Assembly (NCBI GenBank): GCA_963812375.1 | Contig: CAWEUW010000007.1 | Coordinates: 225,856 to 289,855 of the forward strand | Reading direction: 5' to 3' | DNA length: 64,000 nucleotides | Source of the DNA: an uncultured Acidimicrobiia bacterium | GTDB lineage: Bacteria > Actinomycetota > Acidimicrobiia > Spongiisociales > UBA5794 | Shown here: piece after piece, positions 4,798 through 64,000 of the stretch | Layout: each line of letters opens with the position of its first letter | Position numbering within the stretch: the first letter of the stretch is position 1 | Position numbers and translations under genes: made by a program | Notes under the pieces: generated by a model | The model's input: only the letters and a program-made list of their open reading frames with translations | What the model was told of the DNA's origin: nothing | Database searches by the model: none

Positions 4798-4924
4798 TAT
4801 TACACGGATGAACGTCGGGCCACCGGGCCGGCACGACGTCCGACGAGGGAGGAGCCGGCGTGACACGAGGTCGCCCGGAGCATCACACCCCAAGCCGGCC
4901 GGTGCCGCCGAACGGTGCCCGACG

Positions 4925-24952: not shown

Positions 24953-26182
24953 TCACCGGTCGGGGATCGCCGCGTCGACGAACCAGGTGTCGACGACACC
25001 CTTTCCCTTCACCTCGATCTTCCCCCTCGGGATGCACGTGAAGGCGTCGGCGATCAGCCGGTAGGTCGGCTCCGACACCTGGATCCGCCCGGGTTCGCCG
25101 TGCGACTCCATGCGGCTCGCCGTGTTCACCGTGTCGCCCCACACGTCGTACTGGTACTTGCTCCGACCGATCACCCCGGCCACGACCGGACCGGAGCTGA
25201 TCCCGACCCGGAACGCCAGCCCACGGTCCCGGCAGTAGTCCAGGATCTCCAGGCCCATCGCCGCCAGGACCTCGGCATGGTCCGCTCGCGGGACGGGGAC
25301 ACCGGAGGCGACCATGTAGGCGTCGCCGATGGTGCGGATCTTCTCACAGCCGTACTTCTCGGTGAGCTCGTCGAAGTAGCTGAACACCTCGTCGAGCTCG
25401 GCGACCACCTGGTCGGCGGGGATCCGCTCGGAGCGAGCGGTGAACCCGACGGCATCGGCGAACAGCACGCTGATCGACTCGAACCTCCTCGCCTCGGCAC
25501 GCCCGGTCTCCTTCAGTTCGGCGGCCACCTCCTCGGGGAGCAGGTTGAGCAGGAGGCGTTCGTTGCGGTCCCGTTCGAAGGAGAGGCGGCCGAGCAGGTA
25601 CCACACCACCGGGGTGAGCACGAGGATGTTGCCGACCATCACCGCGACGAACATCGTGGAGGTCACCATCTGCTGGGGAGCCGCCCGGCTGGCCGCCAGC
25701 GTCGGCTCCAGGAGCCCCATCGTCACCGCCAGCACGATGTAGACGACGACCACACTCACCGTGAGTCTTCGACCCCACGGCAGCGCGATGAGGACGGTCC
25801 CGGCGATACCCCACATCATCACCGCCCCCGAGTTGGCGAAGCCGCCCAGCGTGATGTGGACGAGGACCTGGTTGGCCATGCTGACGACGAGGCCGATGAC
25901 GCTGGCGGTGAAGACGCTGCCGGTGACGGCGTACCAGGTCCAGGCGACGGCCAGGCCGATCACCAGCAGGACGGTGTCCCACGCGGCGGCGGTCTCACCG
26001 GCGGCGAACAGCCACCCGGCGGTCCCCATCGAGAACATGAACGCCAGCAACAGCGAAAGCGTGAACACGCGTGCCACGGTCATCCGGTTCTCGAACGCGG
26101 TCAGGTACCCGGCCGGCTTCGTGCGGGCGGCGAGGCGATCCCAGAATCCGGCCATCGCGGGATAGGTCGCCACGGCCCGCAA
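24953..26182 (-). CDS. membrane-anchored class III adenylate cyclase (6 TM + CHD catalytic domain)
   Basis: N-terminal hydrophobic helices, then ...SISVLFADAVGFTARSE...IRTIGDAYMVASGVP...YDVWGDTVNTASRMESHGEPGRIQVSE.... Intact 409 aa. Confidence 0.8.
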   Translation of the reverse strand: MRAVATYPAMAGFWDRLAARTKPAGYLTAFENRMTVARVFTLSLLLAFMFSMGTAGWLFAAGETAAAWDTVLLVIGLAVAWTWYAVTGSVFTASVIGLVVSMANQVLVHITLGGFANSGAVMMWGIAGTVLIALPWGRRLTVSVVVVYIVLAVTMGLLEPTLAASRAAPQQMVTSTMFVAVMVGNILVLTPVVWYLLGRLSFERDRNERLLLNLLPEEVAAELKETGRAEARRFESISVLFADAVGFTARSERIPADQVVAELDEVFSYFDELTEKYGCEKIRTIGDAYMVASGVPVPRADHAEVLAAMGLEILDYCRDRGLAFRVGISSGPVVAGVIGRSKYQYDVWGDTVNTASRMESHGEPGRIQVSEPTYRLIADAFTCIPRGKIEVKGKGVVDTWFVDAAIPDR

Positions 26183-26245
26183 GCTAGACGCCCGGCCGGA
26201 CCGTCGCCGGTACCCTCAGGGGCCCGGCGGGCGGACGAGGAGCGC

Positions 26246-36797: not shown

Positions 36798-39700
36798 CTA
36801 GAGGCGGCGCAAGGCGGCACGGGTGAGATCGACGAAGTGTCTGGTCTGGAGCTCCTCGAATATGTCGAGAGCTCGGTGGAGTCGTTCTCGATCGAGATCG
36901 AGACGACCCAGGTTCATCTGGCTCAGGGCCTCCTCGAAGGGTATCTGAAGCCCGCTGGCGAGCTCTATCGCCGTGACCCACTCCTTTCTCGCTCCTGCGG
37001 CGTCTCCGCCCTGCGCTTTGAGACGCCCCCGGTAGCGGTGGGCGGCGGGTTGGCCGATGGGGAAGACGCGGCTATACGCGGTCAGCTTCTTGACCGCCCG
37101 CTCAGCCGAGGCCCCGGCATCGCCACGGCTGCGTCCCGTCCTCCAATGGACGAAGGTGGTCTCGGCGACGCCGGTGAAGCCGTCGAGGGCGAAGACGACC
37201 GTCGGCCGCTCGCCGTAGAGGGACTCGGCGGCCGAGGCGGCGGCAGCCCGGGCCCGGACGGGGTCGTTGAGCCTGGTGTAGGTCTCCGCCATCAGACCGT
37301 GGAGCCAGCCAACATTGGCGCCCCCCACGCCGGCATGGAGGAGGCGCTCCCCGTTGCGGAGGCAGACCATGGCCTCCCTGGCATCACCGCGTCGTAACAG
37401 GCTGGTCCCCTGGTACAGCCATCCCCACAATTCGGCCTGGGCATCGTCGAGACGGCTGCCCAGCTCACGGAGCTCCTCCCCGAGGTCGTACACCTGGAGG
37501 AACCTTCCTCGGGCCGTCAACATCTGACCGGTGGTCCCGAGGTTCTCGGCGAGCTGGCGGTAGTCGCTGAGACGTTTGTACAGATCGTACGACTCCCGCA
37601 ACTCCCATTCTACGGTGTCCCAGTCAGCCACTCCCACCCCATAGACGCTGGTCGACAGCTTGACCCAGGCGAGTTCGGTCATCCGATCCACCGCTTCGGC
37701 CACCTCGAAGCTCCGGGCTCGGTACGTGCGGGCCAGGCCGTGGAGGGGGATGATCCCGGCGACAATGCTCATGTTGGCGTAGATACGGGCCAGCACGGGA
37801 GAGGTCCCCGCTCTTTCCCGCGAGGTTGAGGCCGGAAACGGCGGCTGTCAGCAGGGCGCCGGGGTCGTTGGCGTAGTAGTAGATCTTCATCAATCGCTCG
37901 TGGGCCGTGGCCGCCTCGATCAGGTCCTCCCGGGCCTCCGGATCTAGAGTCCGTCCCTGGAATCTGGTGATTCGGTGGGCAGCCTGTAAGACGACGGCAG
38001 TCATCAACCGAGCCCCTACTCCCACCTTGCTCTTGCCGATCGGGTGACCGTGAAGATCGAGAGCCCGCTCAAAATGCTGGAGACTCTGGTCCACGCGGCC
38101 CATACCGAGATACGCCTCGGCGCGGTCCTGCTCCCACCTCGCCAGGATGCGGTCCGGGACCGACTTGGTCGGCTTTATGCCGGACAGTTCGGGATCCCCC
38201 TCACCGCCGCGGGCGATAGCGACGGCGTCGCTGAGGAAACCGATTGCCTCACGGTGAGCGAAGGTGCGAAGCGACTTCCGCCCCGCTCGACCCAGGTAGT
38301 CGAGGGCACGATCGACGTCCTCCCCCGGGGTGCTGGGTGAAAGGCTGTGTCGGTAGTGGTACGCCACGACGGCCAACACAGATTCTGGATCGTCGGCGTA
38401 CTCGTCCTCCAATGATCGAGCCACAGCTGCGTGCAGTTGATGGCGCTGCTCGAAGAGGAGCAGCTCGTAAGCGATATCCCGGGTTATGGCATGACGAAAG
38501 CGAAAGCGCTCGCTGTCGTTGAGTACGGGCTCCACCAGGTCCAGGGGGACAAGACCATGGAGGGATTCGACCACATCGAGAATGGAGATCTCACCAGGAA
38601 ATATCCCCACCAAAGCCCTCGGTGAAAACTCCCGTCCGATCACGCTGGCGACCTTGAGGATCGACTGCTGTCGTACCGGTAACCGGTCTAAGCGCCCGAT
38701 GATCATGTCCTGAACGCTCCGCGGAAAGTCGACCTCCCGCAGGTCCTGCACCTCGGGTGCCAGTCTGCTCTCCCGGTCCTCGATGATGAGCAACCCGGCG
38801 TCACGGAGAGCGAAACCAACCTCCTGGCTGAAGTAGGGGTGGCCCTCGGCGTGTTCGAGGATCAGTTCGGCGACTGGCCCGGGAAGGCTGGCCACTCCGA
38901 GGCAACTCTCCACCAGCTCCAGGGTCTGTGAGGGTTCGAGCTCACCCAGCACGATGTGCACAGTGTCGTCCTCGGCCATGAGGTGTCGGTACTCCTCGGG
39001 TGGAGGACTGGCCGATCCCTCGACGAAGGGCCTCGTCCCTATGACCACCAGCGCAGCGGGGATCTCGTGGATCACTCTTTCGGCCATCGTCCAGGAGGCC
39101 GAGTCCATCCAGTGGCCGTCGTCAAAGACCAGCATCAGCGGGCCATCCGACCGTGGGACGTCCCGCACGATCTCGACGATTAGTTGCTGGGTGTTTTCGT
39201 TGCGAAGATCGGGCTCCATGCCGCTCGTCAGGTAGGTGTCTTCCACTCGGCTGGCGATGATCGGCCGCAGCAGCCCTACCCGCTCCGCTTTCCAGGGGTC
39301 GGCATTCACGAACTCGAGAAGCCGGGCCTCGGCGGCCATGTCGTTTCCACCGAACGATTGCCGGAGCAGAGACCTCCAGGCGTAGTAGGCGGTGGCATAC
39401 TCGATCTCTTCCCCCGCCGTCACTATCACGCTCGTCCCCATTCCGCGGGCCTGGTCCATGAAGTCGGTGAGCAGATGAGACTTACCGATCCCGGCAGGAC
39501 CCTCGACGAGGACGGCGCCTCCTCGACCCCCGTGGAGCCGCCCCAGGGCCTCGCCGAGCAGCGACCGCTCCCGATCACGCCCGATCAGCCTCCCCTGTCC
39601 GGTGGGCCGCGCCGCCGAGGCTCGATCGAGATGGGGTGAGGCCTCGAAGAGGATCACCGGGTCCTCGAACCCCTTGAGACGAGTCGGTCCCACCGTGGAG

Positions 39701-40848
39701 AAGGACGCCCTCTGCCCCCGGGCCGAGGCGATCTCCTCGGTCACATAGACCCCTCCAACAGGCGCCCGCTGCATCAGCCTTGCCGACAGGTTGACGCTGG
39801 GCCCGATGACCCCGTAGGTCATCCTGGTACTGCCCCCATATGCGCCCACAAAGACCACCCCAGATGCGATCCCCACTCGCAGCGGTGCCGCACCGGGCAG
39901 CTTCGTCATGTCGAAAGCCGCTATCACGGCACGCCGAGCATCATCCTCGTGGGACACCGAAGCGCCGAACACCGCGTAGATATGGGCGCCTTTGTCGTCG
40001 AGCAGCGCTTGAAGAACCATTCCTTCATAAGAGGCGATCACCTCCTGAGCCCGACAGACGGAGACGTCGAACAGTTCGGCGGCTTCGTCGCCGATGGCGA
40101 AGTCGATCCCCTCGAAACCAACGAAGAGAGTCACCACGTTGCGGAGTTGACCCATCAACCGATCGAGTCCAAGCTCAAGATGTCCCGCAACAACGGGCAG
40201 GATCCACGCCTGCGCCTTCTGTCTGTCCAGAGTCATCAGGTCGGGATGAGGCACGGCCCCTTCCACATCCCCTGCCCCGTCCACCAGATATCGAACTCGA
40301 CCGTGCTCCTCCACAGGCCGCACCATCGCCCGAGACCTGATCGCGCGGGCCACACGTTCTGTGACGACGACCTCGCCGGCCTTCAACAGAGCCGCCTCTC
40401 CGGAGAGGGCCATGACGATCTCGCCGGCGAGGACATCCAAATAGGACTGTGCGGCGTTCCCGACCCGCAATCTCCGACCGGTCCCCGAGGCGACAGCCAC
40501 CTTTATTTCGAGGGCGTGTCCCTCCTGGTCCCGCAAGTCGTGGATCACATTGACGAGTTCCACGCCTACGGCAGTAGCCCGATGCCCGTTGTCCCCCTCG
40601 AACCAGCAGGTGACGGAGTCGCCGGCGAAGCTGATCACGCTGCCCCCGGCTTCGTCAATGACACCGATGACGGCGCCGAAGACACGGTTGAGGACCGCGG
40701 CCAAAGTCTCGGCCCCGAGACGAGGCCCATGGCGCCGGCTCAGATCGGCGGTGAGAGTGGTGAATCCTGTGATATCGGCGAACAGCGCCGACCCGTCGGA
40801 CAGGGTTCGCACGCGCCCCAGCCCGGCCAGCTCCAGTCTCCGATCCAT
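36798..40848 (-). CDS. very large multidomain signalling protein: tandem class III adenylate/guanylate cyclase domains + P-loop AAA/STAND-type NTPase + TPR-like helical repeats; one frameshift ~37650-37800 joins ORFs 37624..40848 and 36798..37796
   Basis: N-terminal CHD motifs FADITGFTTL... and FVGFEGIDF...GVIGPSVNLSARL. Walker A VLVEGPAGIGKSHLL, Walker B LMLVFDDGHWMD. Long helical repeat region. The downstream ORF (MLARIYANMSIVAGIIPLHGLARTYRARS...TPR-like) is contiguous in another frame. Architecture as in mycobacterial Rv0386/Rv1358-type cyclases but without a C-terminal LuxR HTH. Confidence 0.8.
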
Positions 40849-41329
40849 CGCCAGGTAGGCACCAAGCGATGGCTCCGCGCTGGTGTTGTCTGGTCGCCTG
40901 CAACGCTTCGTGGCCTTCTCTTGGAGGACTATGGAAGGGCAGGTGACGCCTCGGGTGCGTAGGTCTTCGCCATCGTAGGGCAGGACCGACCCGGGGAATC
41001 TCCACTTGATGCCCTCTCGCTCTCGCGACGGCTACCGCCGACCAGATCCTCGACCGCCATGGCCGCCTATCGCCACCGAATATTTGACTGAGGAGACTCA
41101 GCCACATCGTCGAGGCAGCGGACCTCGTTCTCTGTGGTGAGATCATCGAGCTCGACGGTGTCGGTACGCCATTGCTTTCGGCCCGGCCAACGCTCTCGTC
41201 GCCCTCAGCCCACCGGATTGACGGCGGCGCGACGAATCTGACGAGACCTGGGAGCGTCGGCGGCTCGCTTCCCCGACGACGGCGTCCCAAGCGGCGGCGT
41301 CACCCGGCTCCGACCACCCATCCCACGCT

Positions 41330-43191: not shown

Positions 43192-44050
43192 CTAGGTAGC
43201 CGCTCGGACGAGGCGGAACACCTTGCGCGCGCCGGGCAGACCCTTCATCTCGTGGGTGCCTGCTTCCTCGAGCTTCAATCCCGAACCCTCGAGGAGATCG
43301 AATGTCGTCGAGGACACGAGGACTTCGTCCGGACCGCCGACAGCCATGATCCGGGCGGCGGCGTGGACGGCGAGTCCCCGGGCGTCATTACCGACCAGCT
43401 CGACCTCGCCCGTGTGGAGGCCCACCCGGATCGGGAGATCCATCTCGCGCGCCGAACGGGCCATCGCCGCACCGCACCGCACTGCCCGTGCGGCGCTGTC
43501 GAACACCGCAAGGAAACCGTCACCGGTGGTTTTCACCTCACGCCCTCGGAAGACATTGAGCTGGTCGCGGAGACGAGTGTTGTGGACCAGTAAGAGGTCG
43601 CGCCAGGCCGTGTCGCCCACCATGTGCAGGGTCGCCGTTGAGTCGACGATGTCCGTGAACAAGACGGTGACAAGGACTCCTTCACCGGCTCCCTCGGGAA
43701 CGAGCCCGAAGACCCGGGCGCTCGTCCATTCGACGGTCAGCCATGGATCGTCGCCAACGACCCAGGCGTCGTGACCGGGTGGGATCTCATACACCGAAGC
43801 CGGCGGGATGTCGATCGCCTGGCCATCGTCCATCTCGACGTGCATCGAGCCAGAGATGGAGTAACCCAGGTGGTGGAGCTGACAGCTGCACAGTCCCCGC
43901 GATTGCCGGCATTGCGGTCGACCAGCGCCAACCGGGCTCATACGTCGCACGACCGACGACAGAATCATCGAGACTGACAACTTCGGCGCGGCCATTGGGG
44001 AAGGCTCGCACTTCATCCGGCGACGTAAAGGTCTTGTACTGAAGTCGAGG
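43192..44050 (-). CDS. cupin-domain + class III adenylate cyclase (CHD); frameshift between the two domains (~43790)
   Basis: ATG 44050 MPRLQYKTFTSPDEVRAFPNGRAEVVSLDDSVVGRATYEPGWRWS (cupin). In another frame ...MHVEMDDGQAIDIPPASVYEIPPGHDAWVVGDDPWLTVEW...VLVTVLFTDIVDSTATLHMVGDTAWRDLLLVHNTRLRDQLNVFRGREVKTTGDGFLAVFDSAARAVRCGAAMARSAREMDLPIRVGLHTGEVELVGNDARGLAVHAAARIMAVGGPDEVLVSSTTFDLLEGSGLKLEEAGTHEMKGLPGARKVFRLV*. Confidence 0.65.
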
Positions 44051-44342
44051 CATACGGAACCCTCTAGGAATCCGCGAGCGGCGTCCCGGTCCGGACCGCC
44101 TCGCCGGCATCGAGAATCGCCTGGCTGGCCATGGAGGGTAGGCGTCCCGTGATGTGGGCGAAGTTGGGGGGGGGTTCCTTCGAGTTGACGGGCCACCGGT
44201 AGACTCTCAGCGAGATCATCCACGAGCTCGTAGAGGCGGAGCGGCCCGCATGGCCACACGCCTCGCTCGTTTCCCGGATGCGCCGAAGCTCGCTTGGGTA
44301 GGCTCGGCTGCGGCAGCAGGCGACGGGCGAAAGGATCCCGCG

Positions 44343-45161
44343 ATGGGCGAATGGCAGTTCCTCGACTCGGCCTCACGCACCAACCTGGTTACCGCTGCGG
44401 AACGTGAGTCTGAGGGGTTCTTCGAGCTGGCCTCGGACCCGGATCGTTGGGAGTCTCCGACGGGCGCCGGGCATTGGCAGGTGCGAGATGTCGTCGGCCA
44501 TCTCGTCGACACCACCGAGACCTACTTCATCGGGTTCGACGCCGCACGCGGAAACGGCGAAGGGCCGGAGAACCTCGGCCTGGCCGACATGGCGTCGTGG
44601 GTGGACAAGGGCGGCCAGTCGTTCCGGGGAACGCCGCAGGACGAGATGATCGCCCGGTGCAAGGCGGCCCGGGCACGCTTCAACGGAATCGTCGACGAAC
44701 TGAGCGACGACGAGTGGGCGGGTCTGATGGTTCCGCACAAGTACATGGGACCGCTCCCCGCCGCCTTCTACCCGCTCTTCCAGCTGGTCGACTACGGCGT
44801 CCACAGCTGGGACATGCGGGAGGGAACGGGTGGGGGCCACGCCCTCGACGGTGACAGCGCCGACCTACTCGTCCCGCTCGCCTTCATCCTGTGGCAATCG
44901 ACCCCGAGCATCCCGCCCGACACCGAGCCCTACGACGTGGGCGTCGAGGTCACCTCGGGACACAACGCCGGGAAGCATCGGATCTCGGTGTCGCCGGATG
45001 GGCTCGGCGTGACCGATGGCGAGCTCGACGACCTGCCGGCGGTGCTCGAATTCGATCCGGCCACCCTGGTGCTGACCTCCTACGGACGGATGAACGCCGG
45101 AACGGTGCGTGGCGACCGCGAGATCGCCGAGCGCTTCCTCAACTCGTTCTTCCGCATCTAG
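44343..45161 (+). CDS. TIGR03083-family (mycothiol-dependent maleylpyruvate-isomerase-like / DinB_2) protein
   Basis: SD aaagga + ATG. MGEWQFLDSASRTNLVTAAERESEGFFELASDPDRWESPTGAGHWQVRDVVGHLVDTTETYFIGF... intact 272 aa. Confidence 0.65.
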   Translation: MGEWQFLDSASRTNLVTAAERESEGFFELASDPDRWESPTGAGHWQVRDVVGHLVDTTETYFIGFDAARGNGEGPENLGLADMASWVDKGGQSFRGTPQDEMIARCKAARARFNGIVDELSDDEWAGLMVPHKYMGPLPAAFYPLFQLVDYGVHSWDMREGTGGGHALDGDSADLLVPLAFILWQSTPSIPPDTEPYDVGVEVTSGHNAGKHRISVSPDGLGVTDGELDDLPAVLEFDPATLVLTSYGRMNAGTVRGDREIAERFLNSFFRI

Positions 45162-55199: not shown

Positions 55200-56160
55200 T
55201 CGCCGGCGGTACGCTTCGCCACCGTGCCCGCCGTTGCGCCGATCCGTTACGCCCGCTCCGGCGAGCTGGACATCGCCTACCAGGTGATGGGCGACGGCCC
55301 CATCGACATCGTGGGGATGATCGGCTGGGTCTCCCACCTCGAGGTCCTGGTGGAGCTCCCCGAGGCGGCTCATTTCATCGACCGGTTGGCGGCGATGGGT
55401 CGGCTGGTCGTCTTCGACAAGCGCGGCACCGGGTTGTCCGACCGGCCGACGAAGGCGGCCACCATACGAGCGAGATGGTCCCTGATGTGCTGGCGGTGAT
55501 GGACGCCGCCGGCATGGAGCGGGCCGCCCTGCTCGGGTGGGCGGACGCCGCCGGGTTGGCGATGACCGTCGCCGCCCGGCACCCGGAGCGGGTCAGCGCC
55601 CTGGTGCTCGGCGAGACCCTCGCCACCACCGTCGCCGACCAGACCCACCCGTGGGGCTTGGACCCGGTGACAATCCGGGCGGTGGCCGACGCCATCGAGG
55701 GCGGCATGTGGGGTCAGGCGATTGTGATCCCCTTCATCGCCCCGTCCTCCGCCGGTGGCACAACCTGCTCGAGACCCACCGCGTCGGAGTGCGGCGCCTG
55801 CTCACCCGCCACGGCGGCACCGAGGTGGACACCGCTGGCGATGGCTTCCTGATCACGTTCGACAGCCCCACCAGCGCCATCCGCTGTGCCCTCGCCATGT
55901 CGGCGGGCAGTCGGGCCGACGGGCTCCCGGTGCGGATCGGCATCCACACCGGCGAGGTGGTCCAGCAGGGCGCCGACGTCACCGGAATGGCGGTGCATAT
56001 CGGCGCCCGGGTTTCCGCCCTGGCGTCCGGTGACGAGGTCCTGGTGTCGGGAACGGTGCGCGACATGGTGATCGGGTCCGGATTCACCTTCACACCCAGA
56101 GGACGACACCAGCTCAAGGGTGTGCCGGGCGATTGGGAGTTGTTCTCGGTTGATCCCTGA
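55200..56160 (+). pseudogene. alpha/beta-hydrolase-domain + class III adenylate cyclase (CHD); at least 2 frameshifts
   Basis: ...IRYARSGELDIAYQVMGDGPIDIVGMIGWVSHLEVLVELPEAAHFIDRLAAMGRLVVFDKRGTGLSDRP | ...EMVPDVLAVMDAAGMERAALLGWADAAGLAMTVAARHPERVSALVLGE... | ...GVRRLLTRHGGTEVDTAGDGFLITFDSPTSAIRCALAMSAGSRADGLPVRIGIHTGEVVQQGADVTGMAVHIGARVSALASGDEVLVSGTVRDMV...*. Confidence 0.6.
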
Positions 56161-56180
56161 CCGTCGCCGCTACCGCCGGC

Positions 56181-56594
56181 TCAGTCCCAGACGGCGACGA
56201 TCACCGCCACGATCGAATAGGCGATCACCGCGTTCACCCCGTTGATCAGCCAGTAACTGGGCCCCTTCTGCTCGTAGAGCTGGCTCACCAGGGCGCCCAC
56301 CACACCGAAGCCGACCCCGAGGACCACACCGAGGGCGAGCCCGTCGCCGAAGCTGGTCGCCCCGATGCCCTCCGCCACCAGGGCGATGGCGACGGTCGTC
56401 ACCAGGTACCCGACGAACGTGGGTATCAAGACAGCGGCGAACGACCCGCCTTCTGCCGGGTCCACCTTGGCGGCGGCCTGCCACGCCTGGCTGATGGGCG
56501 GCACCGAGTACCAGATGGCGCTGAAGGCGAACCAGGCGACGGCGGCCACGACGACGGCGAGCCAGTTCAGGTCGCCGAGGAAGTCGAAGATCAT
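56181..56594 (-). CDS. DUF1761-like small integral membrane protein
   Basis: gaggag SD + ATG 56594. MIFDFLGDLNWLAVVVAAVAWFAFSAIWYSVPPISQAWQAAAKVD... four hydrophobic segments. Confidence 0.45.
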   Translation of the reverse strand: MIFDFLGDLNWLAVVVAAVAWFAFSAIWYSVPPISQAWQAAAKVDPAEGGSFAAVLIPTFVGYLVTTVAIALVAEGIGATSFGDGLALGVVLGVGFGVVGALVSQLYEQKGPSYWLINGVNAVIAYSIVAVIVAVWD

Positions 56595-56743
56595 CGAACT
56601 CCTCTCGCTGCTACCTGGAACGCTACCCGCCGCCTCGCCGTCGATCGGGCTTCTCCTGAGGGCGCCGGGCATCAACGACGCCGCGGCGGGTGGGGTTACG
56701 ATCCGCCGATGGTGCTCGGCGAGGTCTGTGACAGGGCACTTCG

Positions 56744-57897
56744 TTGACCGCCCCCGAGCCCGACCGTCCCGTCGCCGAGGTCGCCCGGCTCTTCGGTCGG
56801 ATGGGGCTCACCGCCTTCGGCGGGCCGGCGGCGCACATCTCCATGATGCACGACGAGGTCGTGACCAGGCGGCGATGGCTCGACGACCGGCACTTCCTCG
56901 ACCTCATCGGGGTCACCAATCTCATCCCGGGGCCCAACTCGACCGAGATGGCGATGCATGTCGGGCATCAGCGAGCCGGATGGCGGGGACTGCTCGCCGC
57001 CGGCGTCTCTTCATCGTGCCGGCGGCGCTGATCACCCTCGCCTTCGCCTGGGCGTACGTCGAGTACGGCAGCACCCCCGGCGGCGAGGCGGTCCTGTACG
57101 GCATGGAGCCGGTGGTCGTGGTGATCATCGCCCAGGCACTTGTCAGGCTCAGCCGCTCGGCGATACAGGGATGGCTCAGCGGCGCCATCGCCGTCGCCGC
57201 CGCCATCACCTATCTGTTCGGGGTCAACGAGTTGCTCATCCTGGCGGTCGGGGCGGCCCTGGTCCTCGTGCTCCGGACTTCGATCCGGTCCGACCTCCTG
57301 GCCTTGGCCGCGGTGGGTGCCGGCGGCTGGGCGGCAGCCGAGGTGGCCGGCACCGACCAGATCTCGCTCGGCCGGCTGTTCCTCGTGTTCCTCGAGGTGG
57401 GAGCCTTCCTCTACGGGGGCGGCTACGTGCTTCTCGCCTTCCTGCAGAACGACCTGGTCGACCAGCTGGGGGTCCTGACCCAAGACCAGTTGCTGGACGC
57501 CGTCGCCGTCGGCCAGCTGACCCCGGGACCGGTCTTCACCACGGCGACCTTCGTCGGCTACGTCCTCGCCGGCCTTCCCGGCGCCGTGGTGGCAACCGTC
57601 GGGATCTTCCTCCCCGCCTTCGTGTTCGTCGGGGCGGTGACCCCGATCGTCCGCCGTATCAGGGACCGGGTATGGACGGCGGCCCTGCTCGACGGGGTCA
57701 GCGCCGCCGCCCTGGGACTGATGGCCGGCGTGACCCTCCAGCTGAGCCGGGATGGCCTGGTCGACCCGCTCACCGTCGGGATCGCCGCCGTGGCCGCGCT
57801 GCTCCTGTGGCGTACCCGGGTCAACAGCGCGTGGCTGATCCTCGGGGGAGCGCTGGTCGGGCTCGCCGCCGAGGCCCTCGGTTCCGTCCCGACGTGA
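56744..57897 (+). CDS. chrA: chromate transporter (two fused CHR domains); frameshift ~57010
   Basis: TTG start. LTAPEPDRPVAEVARLFGRMGLTAFGGPAAHISMMHDEVVTRRRWLDDRHFLDLIGVTNLIPGPNSTEMAMHVG... then (+1) LFIVPAALITLAFAWAYVEYG...VGAFLYGGGYVLLAFLQNDLVDQLGVLTQDQLLDAVAVGQLTPGPVFTTATFVGYVLAGLPGA.... Confidence 0.75.
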
Positions 57898-58016
57898 GCC
57901 TGCGTTGGACGCACGCGGACAGGGGCGATCCGCCAATCAGGTAGTTGCACCAGGCATGGCCGGCGGGCAGCGGTTCCGGTAGCGTCTGGGTTCACCGAGC
58001 CTCGGGAGGGCACACC

Positions 58017-58430
58017 GTGAGCGTCATCGTCGGGTATCTACCGACCAACCGGGGCCAGGCCGCCGTCGATCTGGCGATACGTGAGGCGAAGCTGCGCAAC
58101 ACCGACCTCGTGGTGGTCCATTCGATCCACGGCGATCGGCGGCACGACGACGATGACGCCATCGCCAGCGACCGTGACCTCGCCGCACTCGACAAGCAAC
58201 TCGCCGCCGAAGGCATCGAGTACGCCGTGCACAACTACGTACGGGGGAACGAGCCTTGCGAGGACGTCGTTCAGGCTGCGAAGGACTTCGACGCCGAGCT
58301 GGTCGTCATCGGGCTGCGCAAGCGGACGGCGGCGGGGAAGTTCTTCCTCGGCTCGAACGCGGACGACATCATGATGAACTCTCCGTGTCCGGTGCTCGAC
58401 GGTCAGGGTCGAGCACGCCAAGGAGTGAGG
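58017..58430 (+). CDS. universal stress protein (UspA family); frameshift ~58395 at C-terminus
   Basis: GTG. VSVIVGYLPTNRGQAAVDLAIREAKLRNTDLVVVHSIHGD...AELVVIGLRKRTAAGKFFLGSNADDIMMNSPCPVL then (+1) TVRVEHAKE*. Confidence 0.65.
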
Positions 58431-58465
58431 GCCGGTCTCCGGTCCAGACGACCCGGCGGCGCCGG

Positions 58466-58786
58466 TCACGCCCCCGGAGGCCGGAAGGCGACCTCGGTCG
58501 AGCCGATCCTGTCCATCTCCTCCGGGGTGATGAGGACGGTCGTCTTCATGGTCCCGGCGCCGCTGGCCGACACCGAAGTGGACACGGCCCCGGCGGCCAC
58601 GTTGTCGGGTAGGTCGGCGACGACGATGACATCCGTGCCACCGAAGGCGAAGTAGAAGGCCTCCACGGTCCCTCCGGCTCCGGTGACGGTGGCCTCGATG
58701 GCCGCTCGCCGCCCGGTTCCCCCCTCCTTGCGCAGTCCGCTGATCCCCTGCTGGGAGAGGGCGCCCTGGAACAGGTACTTCGGCAC
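58466..58786 (-). CDS. GYD-domain protein
   Basis: GTG. VPKYLFQGALSQQGISGLRKEGGTGRRAAIEATVTGAGGTVEAFYFAFGGTDVIVVADLPDNVAAGAVSTSVSASGAGTMKTTVLITPEEMDRIGSTEVAFRPPGA*. Confidence 0.65.
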   Translation of the reverse strand: MPKYLFQGALSQQGISGLRKEGGTGRRAAIEATVTGAGGTVEAFYFAFGGTDVIVVADLPDNVAAGAVSTSVSASGAGTMKTTVLITPEEMDRIGSTEVAFRPPGA

Positions 58787-58931
58787 GTGGAGTCCTTCGT
58801 TCGGGTGGTCGATGGTAATCAGCGGGATCTGCGCCCGACCAGATGATGGGAAGGTGCCTGGCAAACGTCCATCGGGTCGCTCCTACCGTCCCTTCCGCTG
58901 ACCGTGCCGGCGGTCCTCGGCGGGGGTGCGG

Positions 58932-59759
58932 TCAGGTCGTTGCGCTGGGCAGGCGGCGCAGCCCGTCGACCAGTTCGGCGCCGGCCTCCTCGCCGAGGAC
59001 GTCGAAAGACCGCTGGGCGAAGGCGTTGGTGTCGTCCTCGATCGCCTCGCGCACCCGCCGTCCCCGGGCGGTGGGCCGCGCCGGATCCGCCTCGGCGTAA
59101 CCCCGCTCCACCAACGAGGCCAGCCCGGGCCGATCGGCCTCGACGGTCTCGTCTTGCCACAGCGCGGTGAACACCGGCATCTCCGTTGCGGTCAGGTGCC
59201 GGCCCAGCCAGGCGGCCGCGTGGTCGTGCTGGCGCACGTACCGGAGCGTGATCAGCCGACGAAGCAGCCGGGCGGCGGGGTCCTCGGGCTCGGCGATCTG
59301 GCGATGCGCCACCGCAACGAGGTGGTCGGCAGGAGCGGCCGCGCCGACGCGGGCGGCGTGGTCCGACACCGTCGCCATCAGCTCGGGATGCGGTCCCCAT
59401 ACCGACGACACCACGCTCGCCTGGGCTTCGGCGATGGCGTCCAGCAGCGGCACCATGCGCTCGGTGGCGGCGTAGGTGTCGTCTTCCCGGCGTACGGCCA
59501 GGCCCTTCTCCACCAGGCCGGCGAGATGGCCGGTGACCATCGCCGGGTCGGCGTAGCGCATCCGGAGGGTGGCGATCTGCTCGGTGAGCACTCCTGCCTG
59601 GAGGAACGGTGCCACGTTGGTGGGCAGAGGAGCCACCCCGTCGAGCCCGAGCTCGGCGGCGATGCCACGAAGCCGCTCTCCATGCAGCTGCCCGACGCCG
59701 GCATTCGCCGAGAGCACCAGTCGGTCGATTTCGGGGGCGGCGAACCGGGCCGTGCTCAT
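58932..59759 (-). CDS. hypothetical protein
   Basis: MSTARFAAPEIDRLVLSANAGVGQLHGERLRGIAAELGLDGVAPLPTNVAPFLQAGVLTEQIATLRMRYADPAMVTGHLAGLVEKGLAVRREDDTYAATERMVPLLDAI... uninterrupted 275 aa. No domain recognised. Confidence 0.4.
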   Translation of the reverse strand: MSTARFAAPEIDRLVLSANAGVGQLHGERLRGIAAELGLDGVAPLPTNVAPFLQAGVLTEQIATLRMRYADPAMVTGHLAGLVEKGLAVRREDDTYAATERMVPLLDAIAEAQASVVSSVWGPHPELMATVSDHAARVGAAAPADHLVAVAHRQIAEPEDPAARLLRRLITLRYVRQHDHAAAWLGRHLTATEMPVFTALWQDETVEADRPGLASLVERGYAEADPARPTARGRRVREAIEDDTNAFAQRSFDVLGEEAGAELVDGLRRLPSATT

Positions 59760-59846
59760 GTCCCCGGACGATACCCGCCTCCACTCAGCCTGAGGTTCTG
59801 GCATACCGGAGCGGTATGCGTGAACCTCAGGTTCGGAACCCTCTCG

Positions 59847-60676
59847 TCAGTATCTCGTGGAGAGCGTGGCGGCGTACTCGGCGAGCAGGTCGGCGCCATC
59901 GGCGACCACCGGCTCGCCATGGCCGAACAGGATCGTCTCGAATGGATAGCCGGCCAGCTTGAGCACGCTCTGCCGAGCCTGGGCGTCGTCGGCGGTGAAC
60001 TCGGGGTTGGAGCCGGAGACGGTGGCACCGTCGTCGCCGCCGGACAGGGCGTCACCGACCACGAGGACACCGGTGTCGGGGTCGAGCACCGAGATCGACC
60101 CGGCGGTGTGACCCGGGGTCTCGATGACGGTGAGCCCCATGACCTCCGACCCGTCGCCCACCGCCATCAGGTCACGGGGGGCGTCGATCGAGCCGATGTC
60201 CGCCTCGCCGGCGTAGAGGGTGGCGGCCGAGGCGAGCTCGGCGGCGGCACCGAGGCCTCCCGACGTGGTCCGAGTGGTGGTGGGTCAGGATGATGTGGTC
60301 GACCTCGGCCCACCCCAGCCCGGCTTCGGCGAGCGCCGTCTCGATCGCCGCCTGACCTCCGTCCACACCGGTGTCGACGATCGCCGCCCGACCGCTCCGG
60401 TTCGAGGATGTACGCCGAGACGAACACGAAGGACGCCCTCGTCCAGGTGAGGGGCCCGGCGGCCGCATCGGTCTCGCCGGCGGTGGTCGAGGTGGCGGAA
60501 CCGGCCGCGTCAGGTCCCCCGGTGGTCGAGGTGACCCGGAGCGTCGACCCGGGCTCGACCGCCGGGTCGCCACAAGCGGCGACGCCGAGCACGCCGACCG
60601 CCAGGGCGCCGCTCCCCACGGTCCAGATGAACCGCCGGCGCTCGATCACCCGGCTCTGGTGACGCATCGGAGCCAT
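59847..60676 (-). CDS. MBL-fold metallo-hydrolase with Tat/lipoprotein-type signal; two frameshifts (~60290, ~60400)
   Basis: MAPMRHQSRVIERRRFIWTVGSGALAVGVLGVAACG (RRxF twin-arginine + lipobox) | ...RAAIVDTGVDGGQAAIETALAEAGLGWAEVDHIILTHHHSDHVG | ...MAVGDGSEVMGLTVIETPGHTAGSISVLDPDTGVLVVGDAL...FGHGEPV.... Confidence 0.6.
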
Positions 60677-60721
60677 CGCCGCAGGAGTACGAAGGAGGCT
60701 TCCCCCCGGTTCGCCACGTTC

Positions 60722-61095
60722 AGTCGTCCTCGGAGAGGGGCGCCAGCACGCAGAACTCGTTGCCTTCGGGGTCGGCCATCACCACCCAGCTCACCTCACC
60801 CTGGCCGATGTCGACCCTGGAGGCACCGAGCGCCTCGAGTCGGCGCCACCTCGGCGACCTGGTCGTCGGGCCGCAGGTCGAGATGGACCCGGTTCTTCAC
60901 CGTCTTCGCATCGGGCACCCTGAGGAACAGCAGGTCAGGCGACACCCCGTCCTCGGGACTGCCTTCCGGCGGCTCCAGGACGACCTCGTCATCGTCCTCG
61001 AAGGTGATCCGCCACCCCAGGGCCTCCGCCCACCACGCCCCGAGCGTTGACGGATCGGCGCAATCCACCGCCCAGTTCTGCATCCGCAACGACAT
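60722..61095 (-). CDS. VOC/glyoxalase family protein; frameshift ~60830
   Basis: MSLRMQNWAVDCADPSTLGAWWAEALGWRITFEDDDEVVLEPPEGSPEDGVSPDLLFLRVPDAKTVKNRVHLDLRPDDQVAEV then (shift) ERLEALGASRVDIGQGEVSWVVMADPEGNEFCVLAPLSEDD*. Confidence 0.55.
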
Positions 61096-61201
61096 GGGGG
61101 CAGTCTATTGCGACGCACCGGGGGGACACCCCCCTACACTCGAAGGGCGGCGATGCCACCGGGCTGAGGCTTCGCCGCCGAACGAGCGGGGAGTATCGCG
61201 G

Positions 61202-62908
61202 ATGTCCGAAACACCCCCTCCGCCTCGTTCCGTCATCGTGGTAGCGGTCCGCGACGAACAGCGCGCCGACCAGGTGGCGACCGAGCTGCGGAGACGGTAT
61301 GACGCCGACTACGAGGTGCGCGTGGCGAACACCGCGGGCGCGGCTGCCGCCGTCGTCGACGAGGTGTGCGCCGCAGGCGGGACCGTCGCCCTGTTGCTGG
61401 CCGACGACGCGTCACCGCTCGAGTCGGACGTCAGCGTGTTCGTCCACGCCCGCCGGGTATTCCCCGACGTGCGGCGCGGGCTGCTGGTCGAGTGGGGGGC
61501 GTGGGCCGACCCGGTCGAGTCGCAGACCGTGCTCGGGCTGATGGCGGAGGGCCACATCGACTACTACGTGCTCCGCCCCTGGCGCACCCCCGACGAGTAC
61601 TTCCACCGGACCGTCACCGAGTTCCTGCTGGAGTGGGACCGCGCCTACGACCAGCGGGCGCGCGAGGTGACCATCATCGCCGACCCGTCATGGTCGAGGG
61701 CCCATGACCTGCGCAGCCTGCTGGGCCGTGCCGGGGTTCCCCACGCCTTCCGCGACATGCGTTCGCCCGAGGCGAGCCAGCTGCTCGACGCGCTCGGGGA
61801 GCCACCGCCCGAGGCGCCTCTCCTCGTGCTGCACGACGGCCGGGTGCTGCGCGACCCCAGCAACGTCGAAGCCACCCAGGCCTACGGGCTGCCCACCGAG
61901 CTGCCCGAGGTCGACGAGGCCGACGTCGTGGTGATCGGCGCCGGGCCCGGTGGGCTCGCCGCCGCCGTCTACGGTGCCTCCGAGGGGTCTGACCACCGTC
62001 GCCGTGGAACGCGACGCCATCGGAGGCCAGGCCGGCTCGAGCTCGCTGATCCGCAACTACCTCGGGTTTGCCCGGGGCATCGGCGGGGCAGAGCTGACCC
62101 AACGGGCCTACCAGCAGGCCTGGGTGTTCGGCACCCAGTTCTCACTCACCAGGGAGGCGGTTGGCTTGCGGCAGGAGAACGAGCGGCTGGTGGTGTCGTT
62201 GGCGCCCGACGGCGAGCTCCGCACCAAGGCCGTGGTCCTCGCCACCGGGGTGTCGTACCGGCGCCTCGGCGTCCCCGAGCTGGAAGCGAGCGGCGGGGTC
62301 TTCTACGGCGCGTCCAACTTCGAGGCGAAACAGCTCGAGGGCCGGGTGGCGCACGTCGTCGGCGGCGGCAACTCGGCGGGGCAGGCGGCGCTCCACCTGG
62401 CTCGCTTCGCCAAGGCGGTCAGCCTCCTGGTCCGCGGCCAGGCGCTGGCCGAGAGCATGTCCGCCTACCTCATCGAGCAGCTCGAGGCCGCCGGGGTCGA
62501 GGTCCGGCTCAACGCCGAGGTGATCGGGGGCGGAGGCACCGACGGCCTCGACCACATCGTGGTGCGGGACCGCAAGGAGGGCACCGACACCACCATCCCC
62601 ACCGACGCCCTCTTCGTGCTCATCGGCGCATTGCCGCAGACCGGATGGTTGCCTCCCGAGGTACGGCGCGACCAGTGGGGGTACGTGGTCACCGGCGACG
62701 ACCTGCTCCAGGACGAGGGTGCGCCCAGATGGCCGCTGGAGCGGGACCGCACTTCCAGTTCGAGACGTCGCTGCCCGGGGTCTTCGCCATCGGCGACGTG
62801 CGACGGAAGTCGGTCAAGCGGGTCGCCTCGGCGGTCGGCGAAGGATCGGTCGTCATCTCCAGCGTCCACAACCACCTGGCACACCTCGAGGGCCGCCTAC
62901 CGACATGA
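61202..62908 (+). CDS. fusion of an N-terminal receiver(CheY)-like domain with a thioredoxin-reductase-like FAD/NAD(P) pyridine-nucleotide-disulfide oxidoreductase; frameshifts ~61985 and ~62745
   Basis: ggggag SD + ATG. MSETPPPPRSVIVVAVRDEQRADQVATELRRRYDADYEVRVANTAGAAAAVVDEVCAAGGTVALLLADD... then ...EADVVVIGAGPGGLAAAVYGASEGL | TTVAVERDAIGGQAGSSSLIRNYLGF...GGGNSAGQAALHLARFAKAVSLLVRG... | PHFQFETSLPGVFAIGDVRRKSVKRVASAVGEGSVVISSVHNHL.... The position of the TrxR CATC redox motif reads FYGAS (no cysteines). The stop overlaps the next ATG (ATGA). Confidence 0.7.
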   Translation: MSETPPPPRSVIVVAVRDEQRADQVATELRRRYDADYEVRVANTAGAAAAVVDEVCAAGGTVALLLADDASPLESDVSVFVHARRVFPDVRRGLLVEWGAWADPVESQTVLGLMAEGHIDYYVLRPWRTPDEYFHRTVTEFLLEWDRAYDQRAREVTIIADPSWSRAHDLRSLLGRAGVPHAFRDMRSPEASQLLDALGEPPPEAPLLVLHDGRVLRDPSNVEATQAYGLPTELPEVDEADVVVIGAGPGGLAAAVYGASEGSDHRRRGTRRHRRPGRLELADPQLPRVCPGHRRGRADPTGLPAGLGVRHPVLTHQGGGWLAAGERAAGGVVGARRRAPHQGRGPRHRGVVPAPRRPRAGSERRGLLRRVQLRGETARGPGGARRRRRQLGGAGGAPPGSLRQGGQPPGPRPGAGREHVRLPHRAARGRRGRGPAQRRGDRGRRHRRPRPHRGAGPQGGHRHHHPHRRPLRAHRRIAADRMVASRGTARPVGVRGHRRRPAPGRGCAQMAAGAGPHFQFETSLPGVFAIGDVRRKSVKRVASAVGEGSVVISSVHNHLAHLEGRLPT

Positions 62909-64000
62909 CCGGTCAGGCCGCCGGCCCCGACCAGCCCCTGGAGGGGATGGGGGGGACCGGCCCGACCCCGGCGTCTCCGGACCGCCGGCGGCTGGTGACC
63001 GCAGCGGTCCTCTTACTGATCCCGATCTTGGGGCTCGCCCTGCTCATCGCCCGCCCCGAGCTCGACAAGGAGTGGCGTCACCAGCCGGCGCACTTCTGGT
63101 TGGTGCTGACCGCCGCCGCCATCAACGTCGCCCTCGCCTACGGCACGGGAGCCGCCGCCCGCCGCAGAGGCGACGCCCGGGTGTTCCTGGTCTCCCTGGC
63201 TTTCCTCGCCGCCGCCGGGTTCCTCGCCCTCCATGCGCTGGTCACCCCGGGAGTGTTGCTCGCCGCGCCGAACGCCGGCTTCATCATCGCCACCCCCATC
63301 GGGTTGGCGGTGGCATCGGTGTTCGCCGCCGCTTCCAGCGCCGATCTCGGTGAGCAGCGGGCGCAGGCGTTGATGCGCCACTCCGGGCTCATCCAGTGGT
63401 CGTTGATCGCGGTGATGGCCGCCTGGGCGGTCGCCTCGCTGGCGCACTTGAGGCCGCTCGACGATGCCACCGTCGCCGAACGTGCCTCGGGGGCGATGGC
63501 GGTGATGGCGGTCGCCGCCGTGATCCTGTATCTGGTGGCGGTGGTGCGCTACCTCCGGGTCGCTCGACAGGGGACCTCGTCGCTGCCGCTGTCTTTTGCG
63601 GCGGCATTCACGCTCCTGGCCGAGGCGATGGTCGCCGTCACCCTTGGTCGCGGACTGGCACGTCTCCTGGTGGGAGTGGCACCTCCTGATGCTCGCCGCC
63701 TTCGTGGTGGTGGCGGTGTCGGCGCAGCGGTCGTGGCGCGAGGAGCGCTGGGTGGGGTTGTACCTGCCCGACACCGCCTCCGCACAGCGGGAGTCAGCGT
63801 GGTGTTCGCCGACCTCCAGGGGTTCACCGCCTTCTCCGAGCGGCACACGCCGCAGCAGGTGAGCGCCATGCTCAACGCCTACTTCAGCGAAGCCATCCCT
63901 CACGTGGTCAAGCGGTTCGGCGGTGAGATCGACCGGTTGGTAGGGCGACGCCATGATGGTGACCTTCAACACCCGCGGCGACCAACCCGACCATGCCCAG
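62905..64000 (+). CDS. membrane-anchored class III adenylate cyclase (3' end outside window); frameshifts ~63640, ~63790, ~63945
   Basis: MTGQAAGPDQPLEG...RRRLVTAAVLLLIPILGLALLIARPELDKEWRHQPAHFWLVLTAAAINVALAYG... (6 hydrophobic helices) then ...GVSVVFADLQGFTAFSERHTPQQVSAMLNAYFSEAIPHVVKRFGGEIDRLVGDAMMVTFNTRGDQPDHAQ in shifted frames. Confidence 0.65.
   Translation, partial: MTGQAAGPDQPLEGMGGTGPTPASPDRRRLVTAAVLLLIPILGLALLIARPELDKEWRHQPAHFWLVLTAAAINVALAYGTGAAARRRGDARVFLVSLAFLAAAGFLALHALVTPGVLLAAPNAGFIIATPIGLAVASVFAAASSADLGEQRAQALMRHSGLIQWSLIAVMAAWAVASLAHLRPLDDATVAERASGAMAVMAVAAVILYLVAVVRYLRVARQGTSSLPLSFAAAFTLLAEAMVAVTLGRGLARLLVGVAPPDARRLRGGGGVGAAVVARGALGGVVPARHRLRTAGVSVVFADLQGFTAFSERHTPQQVSAMLNAYFSEAIPHVVKRFGGEIDRLVGRRHDGDLQHPRRPTRPCP

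Follow-up and report, generated by a model that had tools for sequence, protein, structure and literature searches.

A conserved gene pair of soil actinobacteria: a class III cyclase and a flavoprotein that may be an undescribed redox enzyme under cyclic-nucleotide control

At the downstream end of a 64,000-nucleotide stretch from an uncultured Acidimicrobiia bacterium (GenBank assembly GCA_963812375.1, contig CAWEUW010000007.1, positions 225,856 to 289,855; hereafter the window), two genes are joined by a stop-start overlap. The first, gene A, encodes a flavoprotein with the body of a thioredoxin reductase (TrxR) that lacks the redox-active cysteines of that enzyme; the second encodes a class III nucleotide cyclase with an undescribed anchor of eight transmembrane helices (8-TM). 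Together they form a translationally coupled two-gene signalling unit that is conserved in soil actinobacteria, and the flavoprotein may be an undescribed redox enzyme under cyclic-nucleotide (cNMP) control. Three independent architectures, with a fused cNMP-binding domain, with a cNMP-binding kinase and a receiver, or with an adjacent cyclase, tie one cysteine-less flavoenzyme to cyclic nucleotides, and together they make it a candidate redox output of cNMP signalling that is open to test. The component domains and two-gene signalling units as such are already known; the partner and the logic leading from cNMP to a flavoenzyme appear to be undescribed. Actinobacteria possess many cyclases without known downstream targets, and to our knowledge, once CRP-type regulators and a small number of cNMP-regulated enzymes and channels are set aside, few bacterial cyclic-nucleotide effectors have been recognised. 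The pairing had been called undescribed in an earlier reading of the same DNA made without database searches (the sequence-only reading), and no publication on it was found; nor did full-text literature or review yield a description of any of the three architectures, which, given the incomplete coverage, is absence of evidence only.

The gene pair and its conservation

Gene A starts at ATG 61202, with a product that begins MSETPPPPRSVIVVAVRDEQ and includes the stretch LLLADD, and stops at TGA 62906-62908. The cyclase ATG occupies 62905-62907, and both codons lie within acATGAcc at 62903-62910. This overlap with a class III cyclase gene, noticed in the sequence-only reading, is borne out by the sequence and by a match to Pfam Guanylate_cyc. 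The elements of the pair are as follows.

61202..62908, plus strand: gene A, a pseudo-receiver / glutaredoxin-like / cysteine-less TrxR-like flavoprotein, about 568 amino acids (aa) after removal of three single-base insertions (three-frame translation)
62905..62908, plus strand: ATGA start-stop overlap of gene A and the cyclase gene (sequence)
62905..64000, plus strand: 5' part, about 365 codons, of the 8-TM class III nucleotide cyclase gene, which continues past the window end (translation, Pfam, intact orthologues)

When one genome per species was scanned, at least 577 of the 599 matches listed proved to be relatives of the flavoprotein; the locus counts given here refer to the best 80 of these loci, all from species representatives. 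An orthologous 8-TM cyclase gene lies directly downstream on the same strand at 23 of the 80 and is convergent at one more. The paired cyclases are 56-72% identical from residue 46 to the end, membrane domain included, and their hosts include Jiangella, Agromyces, Cryobacterium and many metagenome-assembled genomes (MAGs). The same pair is present in Acidimicrobiia MAGs that share the wider synteny of the window (Usp, HTH_67, metallo-beta-lactamase (MBL) and glyoxalase genes; 70% protein identity) and in a MAG of the Solirubrobacteraceae (Solirubrobacterales), and pairing with overlap extends to at least four orders. The association that the sequence-only reading had envisaged in other actinobacterial genomes is thus a real one, conserved across orders. 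Among 27 orthologous pairs, the two genes overlap in 25, by an in-frame (A/G)TGA in 19 and by 8-14 nt in six, and are separated by a short gap in the remaining two. By rough estimate, chance alone would give an in-frame RTGA start in about one of every eight pairs. Starting instead from the cyclase, the flavoprotein gene is found immediately upstream in three of four independent cases.

The partner need not be the 8-TM cyclase. With a hidden Markov model (HMM) of the catalytic domain, a class III cyclase was found within the flanks of about 6 kb at 38 of the 80 loci; in about 33 of these it adjoins the flavoprotein gene. Five further architectures of the cyclase homology domain (CHD) are represented: PAS-PAS-CHD, cupin-CHD, SCO4226-like-CHD, truncated globin with an HNOBA-like CHD, and CHD-STAND. 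The PAS-PAS-CHD and cupin-CHD genes stand directly upstream of the flavoprotein gene. Since clustering the flavoproteins by sequence identity intermingles these types, the association, as judged from the sequences, is with cyclases in general and not with one membrane domain. Nor is adjacency an effect of cyclase density, since non-adjacent cyclases are rare in the flanks of the 80 loci (about five in some 800 kb); the five cyclase genes in the 64 kb of the window do not alter this.

Two other neighbourhoods recur among these loci. At 14 loci of the Microbacteriaceae that have no cyclase, the flavoprotein gene has as its divergent neighbour a large DUF4062-STAND(NB-ARC/AAA_16)-TPR gene, and at one further locus (L063) a cyclase-STAND fusion lies nearby. 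Immediately upstream of the gene for an HNOBA-like class IIIa cyclase, four species have a truncated globin gene (Pfam Bac_globin). This globin-cyclase pair comes directly after the flavoprotein gene in L019, L077 and L079 and is located upstream of it in L044, an arrangement that resembles a gas-sensing module with a candidate reductase.

About 3200-6000 of each locus, minus strand: DUF4062-STAND-TPR gene in L022, L027, L030, L032, L035, L042, L048, L052, L054, L056, L057, L071, L072 and L074
L019 2569-3992, L044 2565-4060, L077 1662-3141 and L079 7726-9157: globin-cyclase pairs

Are the two genes functional in the window itself? Neither is an intact open reading frame (ORF) there. Each carries three single-base indels, and the intact genes implied by the sequence-only reading had been obtained by silently splicing the frames. 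The frame of gene A moves by +1 near 61988 and is restored after 62749 and 62758; that of the cyclase changes at 63651 (+1), 63793 (-1) and 63942 (+1). The gene A changes are defined by comparison with locus L087 (ENA ERZ25039456 contig_58914, 1.76 Mb), which is 96.1% identical to window 57972-64000.

61988, plus strand: first frameshift of gene A, a single-base insertion relative to L087 (CCGAGGGGTCTGACC in the window, CCGAGGGC-CTGACC in L087)
62749 and 62758, plus strand: two single-base insertions that return gene A to its original frame; the L087 reading is ERDPLPFETS, the same as in the homologue P0001

In L087, gene A (567 aa) and the cyclase gene (478 aa) are both intact and the ATGA overlap is retained. 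The two sequences differ by 19 single-base gaps in 6 kb, spread over coding and non-coding DNA, and the indel density of the neighbouring genes and intergenic DNA is the same as that of the pair. The gene A products differ by 10 aa, and the substitutions are strongly skewed towards synonymous ones, with a nonsynonymous-to-synonymous ratio (pN/pS) of 0.12 for gene A and 0.18 for the cyclase. The whole region 55224-64000 is rich in indels, and an alpha/beta-hydrolase-cyclase gene (55224-56157), an MBL hydrolase gene (59850-60649, minus strand) and a glyoxalase gene (60723-61095, minus strand) are also frame-broken; the Usp and HTH_67 genes have intact frames, and long intact ORFs are present elsewhere in the window. 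A frame-plot estimate of frameshift density across the window was too noisy for use. Because both genes are intact in L087 and pN/pS is 0.12-0.18, the window indels are, on the sequence comparison, almost certainly consensus errors of an error-prone assembly and not a sign of pseudogenisation; genuine pseudogenes are rejected as the main explanation on the strength of the intact L087 genes, the spread of the indels and the pN/pS values. Thousands of full-length homologues of gene A exist (567-570 aa, the best at 91% identity), and because of these and of the low pN/pS the coding signal of both genes can be regarded as far above chance.

L087 itself seemingly has one indel error of the same kind, in HTH_67. 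A palindrome, G6-ACA-C6, is located at 61120-61134, within the 107-nt divergent region between the glyoxalase and flavoprotein genes, and the palindrome differs from L087 by an indel at one of the C positions. An Rfam scan of 57-64 kb of the window gave no matches.

The flavoprotein and its sister architectures

An AlphaFold2 (AF2) model was made of P0001, which is 91% identical to the gene A product, from a 97-sequence alignment, with a mean predicted local distance difference test score (pLDDT) of 83.9. It consists of three modules, at residues 10-148, 156-226 and 240-561, which correspond to the following parts of the window.

61229..61645, plus strand: degenerate CheY-like (beta-alpha)5 domain, residues about 10-148, with the LLVEWGAW insertion (AF2, five beta-alpha units of CheY/flavodoxin-like fold, pLDDT >90)
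61667..61879, plus strand: cysteine-less glutaredoxin/thioredoxin-like fold, residues about 156-226 (AF2 topology b-a-b-a-b-b-a)
61919..62890, plus strand: TrxR-like body binding flavin adenine dinucleotide (FAD) and NAD(P)H, with motifs GAGPGG, GGQAGSSSLIRNYLGF, GGGNSAGQA and GDVRRKSVKRVASAVGEG (Pfam, NCBIfam, PDB profile)
62301..62315, plus strand: FYGAS at the site of the redox-active CxxC of TrxR (PDB-profile and family alignments)

The sequence-only reading had recognised both the CheY-like fold and the TrxR-like body with its GAGPGG and GGGNSAG motifs, and AF2 and Pfam agree. The "linker" of about 190 aa that it had placed between them is in fact the second half of the (beta-alpha)5 domain followed by the glutaredoxin-like domain, as seen in the AF2 model and from a Pfam Glutaredoxin match at the equivalent position in a Nostoc relative (L100).

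In the gene A product, Pfam finds solely Pyr_redox_2 (residues 241-549, E 7.7e-34). The best PDB profile matches of the body are TrxRs (E 1e-45 to 1e-47), and Foldseek with the whole P0001 model returns full-length AhpF at the top, followed by TrxRs. The NCBIfam models are matched below their cutoffs: TRX_reduct (TrxB, TIGR01292) at 177.2 bits, with a cutoff of 343.45, and AhpF (TIGR03140) at 124.5 bits, with a cutoff of 502.9; the AhpF-homologue family is also far under its cutoff. The FAD and NAD(P)H motifs GAGPGG, GGGNSAGQA and GD are invariant in the family alignments, and binding of the cofactors is predicted. At the site of the CxxC, the profile alignment sets "vfyGas-vfe" opposite "vtyCAA-CDG" and "vssCAT-CDG" of the TrxRs in the PDB. 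The Y-G-A-S residues are invariant or nearly so in alignments of 12 and 97 sequences, where the family reads (F/Y)YGAS, and a cysteine pair is absent from this site in every member of all three related architectures. The gene A product has a single, non-conserved cysteine, and no cysteine is conserved across the family. Recovery of a CxxC by correction of the frame was considered and ruled out: the corrected sequence and every homologue have YGAS or a variant of it. Because the redox CxxC is absent, a classical disulfide reductase is ruled out, which agrees with what the sequence-only reading had deduced from FYGAS. The gene A product is, on its predicted cofactor sites, a flavoenzyme or a flavin-binding module for which the dithiol mechanism of TrxR is impossible, and the widespread annotation "thioredoxin reductase (NADPH)" is hereby corrected for proteins that cannot apply that mechanism to disulfides.

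The flavoprotein shares with TrxB and AhpF the two-Rossmann FAD/NAD(P)H body, with GxGxxG, a GGQ...ENYxGF-like segment, GxGxxA and the C-terminal GD motif, and with AhpF also the presence of alpha/beta domains in front of the TrxR-like part. The resemblance to AhpF is, however, one of overall architecture only. AhpF has an N-terminal double thioredoxin fold with a CxxC, whereas the flavoprotein has a CheY-like fold first and then one glutaredoxin-like fold; unlike TrxB and AhpF, it has neither a CxxC in the NADPH domain nor a cysteine in the N-terminal thioredoxin-like domain. Beyond this AhpF-like overall architecture, PDB sequence and Foldseek searches with the N-terminus gave nothing informative. 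The TrxR-like ferredoxin/flavodoxin-NADP+ reductases of the YumC / Chlorobaculum FNR type, which the family profile picks up with E 1e-15 to 1e-18, likewise have the TrxR fold without a CxxC and lack thiol chemistry. These enzymes are single modules of about 330 aa without N-terminal signalling domains and pass FAD electrons straight to a partner; their sequences are far more distant from the flavoprotein than those of true TrxRs, and we know of no link between them and cyclases or cNMP.

GGQAGSSSLIRNYLGF and RRxSVKRVAS, the two segments with the highest conservation in the family, are also the only internal parts of the P0001 model with pLDDT <50 (residues 273-292 and 535-541, or about 62020-62080 and 62810-62830 in the window). 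Their low scores may come from folding around the flavin.

The N-terminal domain is a receiver in fold only. Its CheY-like (beta-alpha)5 order is supported by the AF2 secondary structure at residues 10-148 (pLDDT >90), and an hhalign comparison with five classical receivers, statistically weak and in register, equates D68 with D57 and R125 with K109 of CheY; alignment with the canonical-receiver relatives described below gives the same equivalences. In the window protein, the phosphorylation quintet retains the Asp (D68), the acidic pair is V16/R17, and the Lys is an Arg (R125). The sequence-only reading had asked whether the receiver Asp is conserved: it is kept in this protein, but in the 83 related loci the Asp, the acidic pair and the Lys are all variably lost. 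The Thr/Ser strand end is replaced by an invariant LL(V/I)(E/D)WGAW insertion (EWGAW in the window), and all members of the 83-locus set in which the region is visible have the WGxW insertion. Pfam Response_reg (PF00072) does not match residues 1-237 of the window protein even at E<=10. Because the quintet is degenerate and this match is missing, a phosphorylation input to the clade's receiver is doubtful, and the "phospho-receiver input" of the sequence-only reading is unlikely to exist. Conservation also marks an invariant surface on the alpha4-beta5-alpha5 side of the pseudo-receiver. A search of a representative library with the pseudo-receiver only returned 1153 clusters, nearly all of them N-terminal pieces or fragments of the same family, and no clear new architectures.

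Two sister forms of the flavoprotein surfaced by tblastn of annotated plasmids, and both connect it with cNMP. The first is named [quoted passage not shown] by NCBI (for example WP_260640578, WP_088899720 and WP_095423187) and has the Pfam domains cNMP_binding and Pyr_redox_2. It is 45-46% identical to the flavoprotein over residues ~156/170-560, compared with 20-30% for the solved structures listed, mostly TrxRs and AhpF, and it has in common with it the signature motifs GGQAxxSSxIxNYLGF, GGGNSAGQA and SVKRVASAxGEG, with VYYAAT at the CxxC site. It differs from the window flavoprotein in that an N-terminal cNMP-binding domain replaces the (pseudo)receiver and the glutaredoxin-like domain has one cysteine (SCYSP). 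Two actinobacterial loci of this form, on Streptomyces and Rhodococcus plasmids (L090 and L091), are in dnaJ-cbpM-clpB-trxA-zf-UBP operons and not next to a cyclase; a Paraburkholderia locus (L101) has a different gene context.

The second sister form, found on plasmids of Deinococcus, Gloeothece, Nostoc, Streptomyces, Tsukamurella and Caballeronia, is about 40% identical over its full length and has a bona fide Response_reg domain (48-57 bits, cutoff 30.2) with DDD, D-x-MPxMxG, LLTAYA and KPW. At all six loci, from four phyla, the next gene encodes a histidine kinase of about 470-490 aa that combines cNMP_binding with HATPase_c; at four of these loci the kinase gene overlaps by 4 nt. This form has the same three-domain order as the window type, the same cysteine-less body and a signalling gene in the same downstream position, but the partner is a cNMP-sensing kinase and not a cyclase. 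No cNMP-binding kinase gene adjoins the flavoprotein gene in the 80 closest loci of the window clade.

The 8-TM cyclase

Pfam Guanylate_cyc (PF00211) is found in the window fragment with E 1.5e-8 and in an orthologue with E 1.2e-25. It is the only domain recognised in the orthologues, which are 450-480 aa long (476-478 aa in L001 and L087, where the gene is intact). The AF2 model of one of them, P0121 (pLDDT 86.4), has eight helices, at residues 23-45, 58-84, 87-107, 120-141, 146-175, 192-214, 223-243 and 251-274, in place of the six counted in the sequence-only reading, and the catalytic domain follows directly.

62983..63740, plus strand: predicted 8-helix membrane domain with a conserved outer-face cluster, HQPAHFW, LHAL and DWHVSWWEWH (AF2 of P0121, conservation)
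63793..64000, plus strand: start of the catalytic domain, VSVVFADLQGF ... RLVGDAMMVTF, with both metal-binding Asp (Pfam; alignment to CyaB 3r5g)

By the positive-inside rule applied to the model, both termini are probably cytoplasmic. Thirteen His, Trp and acidic residues that are strictly conserved in sets of 25 and 80 sequences (D50, W53, H55, H59, W61, H106, W247, H248, W251, W252, E253, W254 and H255) all map to the outer ends predicted for helices 2, 3 and 8. With four to five conserved His in the domain, the predicted outer-face cluster looks like a metal or ligand site. The 8-TM domain has no sequence or fold match in the PDB by profile and Foldseek searches, and its match to 7TMR-DISM_7TM is weak and below threshold; we define it as a so far uncharacterised sensor domain of class III cyclases.

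In the catalytic domain, the transition-state residues Asn417 and Arg421, which belong to the region beyond the window end, are conserved in the orthologues. The positions that determine specificity are occupied by Arg340 and Thr410 (>=90% conserved) instead of the adenine-specifying Lys and Asp. Because of this Arg/Thr pair the adenylate assignment is unproven: of the "adenylate cyclase" of the sequence-only reading, the class III cyclase stands, and the sequence leaves its specificity for adenylate unestablished. Like Rv1625c/Cya and other membrane-anchored class III cyclases, the protein has a polytopic membrane domain followed by one similar catalytic domain of the obligate homodimer type. 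It differs from Rv1625c in the number of predicted helices (eight, not six) and in the Arg/Thr pair, and the membrane parts have no similarity: the match to 7yzi covers the catalytic domain only, and the full-length Foldseek alignment to 7yzk has a root-mean-square deviation of 19.8. We know of no flavoprotein partner of Rv1625c.

Cyclase genes are unusually dense in the window, with five of class III in 64 kb: 24956-26215 (minus), 37627-41031 (minus), 43195-44388 (minus), 55486-56157 (plus) and 62905-64000 (plus). The ORF at 37627-41031 has two matched stretches. The MBL-fold hydrolase at 59850-60649 (minus) is encoded two genes upstream of gene A, and its L087 orthologue (1950-2777) matches Pfam Anti-Pycsar_Apyc1; judged by this match, it may be a cyclic-nucleotide phosphodiesterase of the same signalling neighbourhood.

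Direction of the signal

What does the flavoprotein do beside a cyclase? We tentatively favour a cyclic-nucleotide pathway in which the cyclase generates the signal locally and the flavoenzyme is the output, because both sister forms place the flavoenzyme behind a cNMP sensor; conversely, the flavoprotein is unlikely to be a sensor for the cyclases, because each of these carries a sensor domain of its own. In the scheme that follows, we infer the direction of information flow in the clade, the route of the signal to the pseudo-receiver, the chemistry of the flavoenzyme and the product of the cyclase. The outer-face His/Trp/acidic cluster of the 8-TM cyclase presumably senses an extracytoplasmic or membrane cue, and a cytoplasmic FAD/NAD(P)H flavoenzyme of the TrxR/AhpF lineage would be the regulated output. 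The signal would reach it via the pseudo-receiver, which would bind the nucleotide or touch the cyclase directly, and would switch an NAD(P)H-dependent redox activity that does not involve thiols. No kinase remains in the window clade, the receiver is without its phosphorylation chemistry, and a generator of cyclic nucleotide with a sensor domain of its own occupies the kinase's place. A further step would be to regard the WGxW pseudo-receiver as a new receptor module for a cyclic nucleotide or cyclase, and the superfamily as an unrecognised class of cNMP-controlled redox effectors, which we consider possible and rather doubtful. If this were true, the pair would be a self-contained pathway from a membrane signal through cNMP to a non-thiol NAD(P)H/FAD redox output, and the class would span cNMP-domain-fused, kinase-coupled and cyclase-coupled forms at 577 or more places (at least 577, with one genome per species).

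Several points weigh against the flavoenzyme as output. No cNMP-binding domain is recognisable in the clade's flavoprotein, so the route of the cyclase signal is purely what we infer, and a crude HMM found no such domain elsewhere in the window. Gene adjacency gives no direction, and action of the pseudo-receiver on the cyclase domain would be just as conceivable. A role as reductase is suggested by the truncated-globin loci, and the specificity residues of the cyclase are Arg/Thr and not Lys/Asp. One of the four reverse look-ups yielded a cyclase without the flavoprotein, and about half of the clade's loci are without an adjacent cyclase, 14 having the DUF4062-STAND-TPR gene instead. The window's own genome, moreover, has five cyclase genes in 64 kb, and adjacency in that genome alone would be weak evidence.

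The signal might also run in the opposite direction, with the flavoprotein as a cytoplasmic sensor of redox state or of NAD(P)H/NAD(P)+ that modulates the cyclase catalytic domain via the pseudo-receiver. This is close to the two-protein module of the sequence-only reading, in which a flavin/NAD(P)H state or a phospho-receiver input was relayed to cAMP synthesis; the tight coupling of the two genes is upheld, but the comparative evidence does not favour that direction, and we consider it rather unlikely, though a serious rival. The conserved start-stop overlap implies stoichiometric co-production, which is typical of interacting partners, and the invariant alpha4-beta5-alpha5 surface is a candidate protein interface. 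In known receiver-cyclase fusions, the cyclase domain is under the control of the receiver, and the association spans cyclases that have only the catalytic domain in common. On the other hand, every associated cyclase has its own sensor domain, and in both sister forms the flavoenzyme is downstream of a cNMP sensor, in the output position after an N-terminal input domain.

Alternatively, the flavoprotein could be a dedicated NAD(P)H-dependent reductase for a redox cofactor in the cyclase's sensor, which would be either the 8-TM domain, with a metal or heme at its His cluster, or a truncated globin, much like the reductase module of flavohaemoglobins. TrxR-like enzymes without a CxxC do donate electrons to protein partners, as the ferredoxin-NADP+ reductases of this fold do (PDB matches 3ab1 and 3lzw), the 8-TM domain has its four to five conserved His, and the Bac_globin gene lies between the flavoprotein gene and the HNOBA-like cyclase gene at three loci, with the pair upstream at the fourth (L044). 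However, the His/Trp cluster is predicted to lie at the outer membrane face, at a distance from the cytoplasmic flavoprotein; the PAS, cupin and SCO4226-like cyclases show no obvious need for a redox cofactor; and the cNMP-binding sister architectures would be left unexplained. We consider such a role improbable.

That the two genes are co-transcribed without a direct functional link, or that the window copies are decaying pseudogenes, is very improbable. The six frameshifting indels, the cyclase-rich genome and the half of the family's loci that have no cyclase would all fit. Yet both genes are intact in L087, the indels are as dense in the neighbouring genes and intergenic DNA (19 in 6 kb), and pN/pS is low in both genes; the orthologous pairing, with its overlap, is conserved in at least four orders, and the RTGA overlap occurs in 19 of 27 pairs, far from the roughly estimated one in eight.

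A Pycsar-like anti-phage pair, in which an infection-sensing cyclase would act with an NAD(P)H-consuming effector, has less to recommend it still. The cyclase domain matches the PADLOC PycC models (E 1e-20), other family members adjoin STAND NTPases, and the Apyc1-like MBL hydrolase is two genes upstream. The PycC match, however, is to the generic catalytic domain only, the flavoprotein has no PADLOC match, and PADLOC assigns the pair to no defence system. The pair is embedded in conserved chromosomal synteny with housekeeping-type genes (Usp, HTH_67, MBL and glyoxalase; 70% protein identity) and recurs in many genera with mostly different flanks, and no mobile-element genes were noted beside 8-TM pairs in the few annotated flanks, where no dedicated test for them was made. 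Finally, a plain thioredoxin reductase, as named by JGI and NCBI ("thioredoxin reductase (NADPH)") and suggested by the best PDB matches, can be dismissed, with the CxxC missing in all members, one non-conserved cysteine in the window protein, and 177 bits for TRX_reduct against a cutoff of 343.

One other neighbour is shared by all three architectures. Small UBP-type zinc-finger proteins are encoded beside them, often with 4-nt overlaps, although in the 80 closest loci of the window clade such a gene is found only in L044.

L094 9131-9484, L098 6137-6487, L090 4249-4512, L091 4235-4501 and L044 5648-5911: zf-UBP genes

These zinc-finger proteins may be a partner or a substrate of the flavoprotein superfamily.

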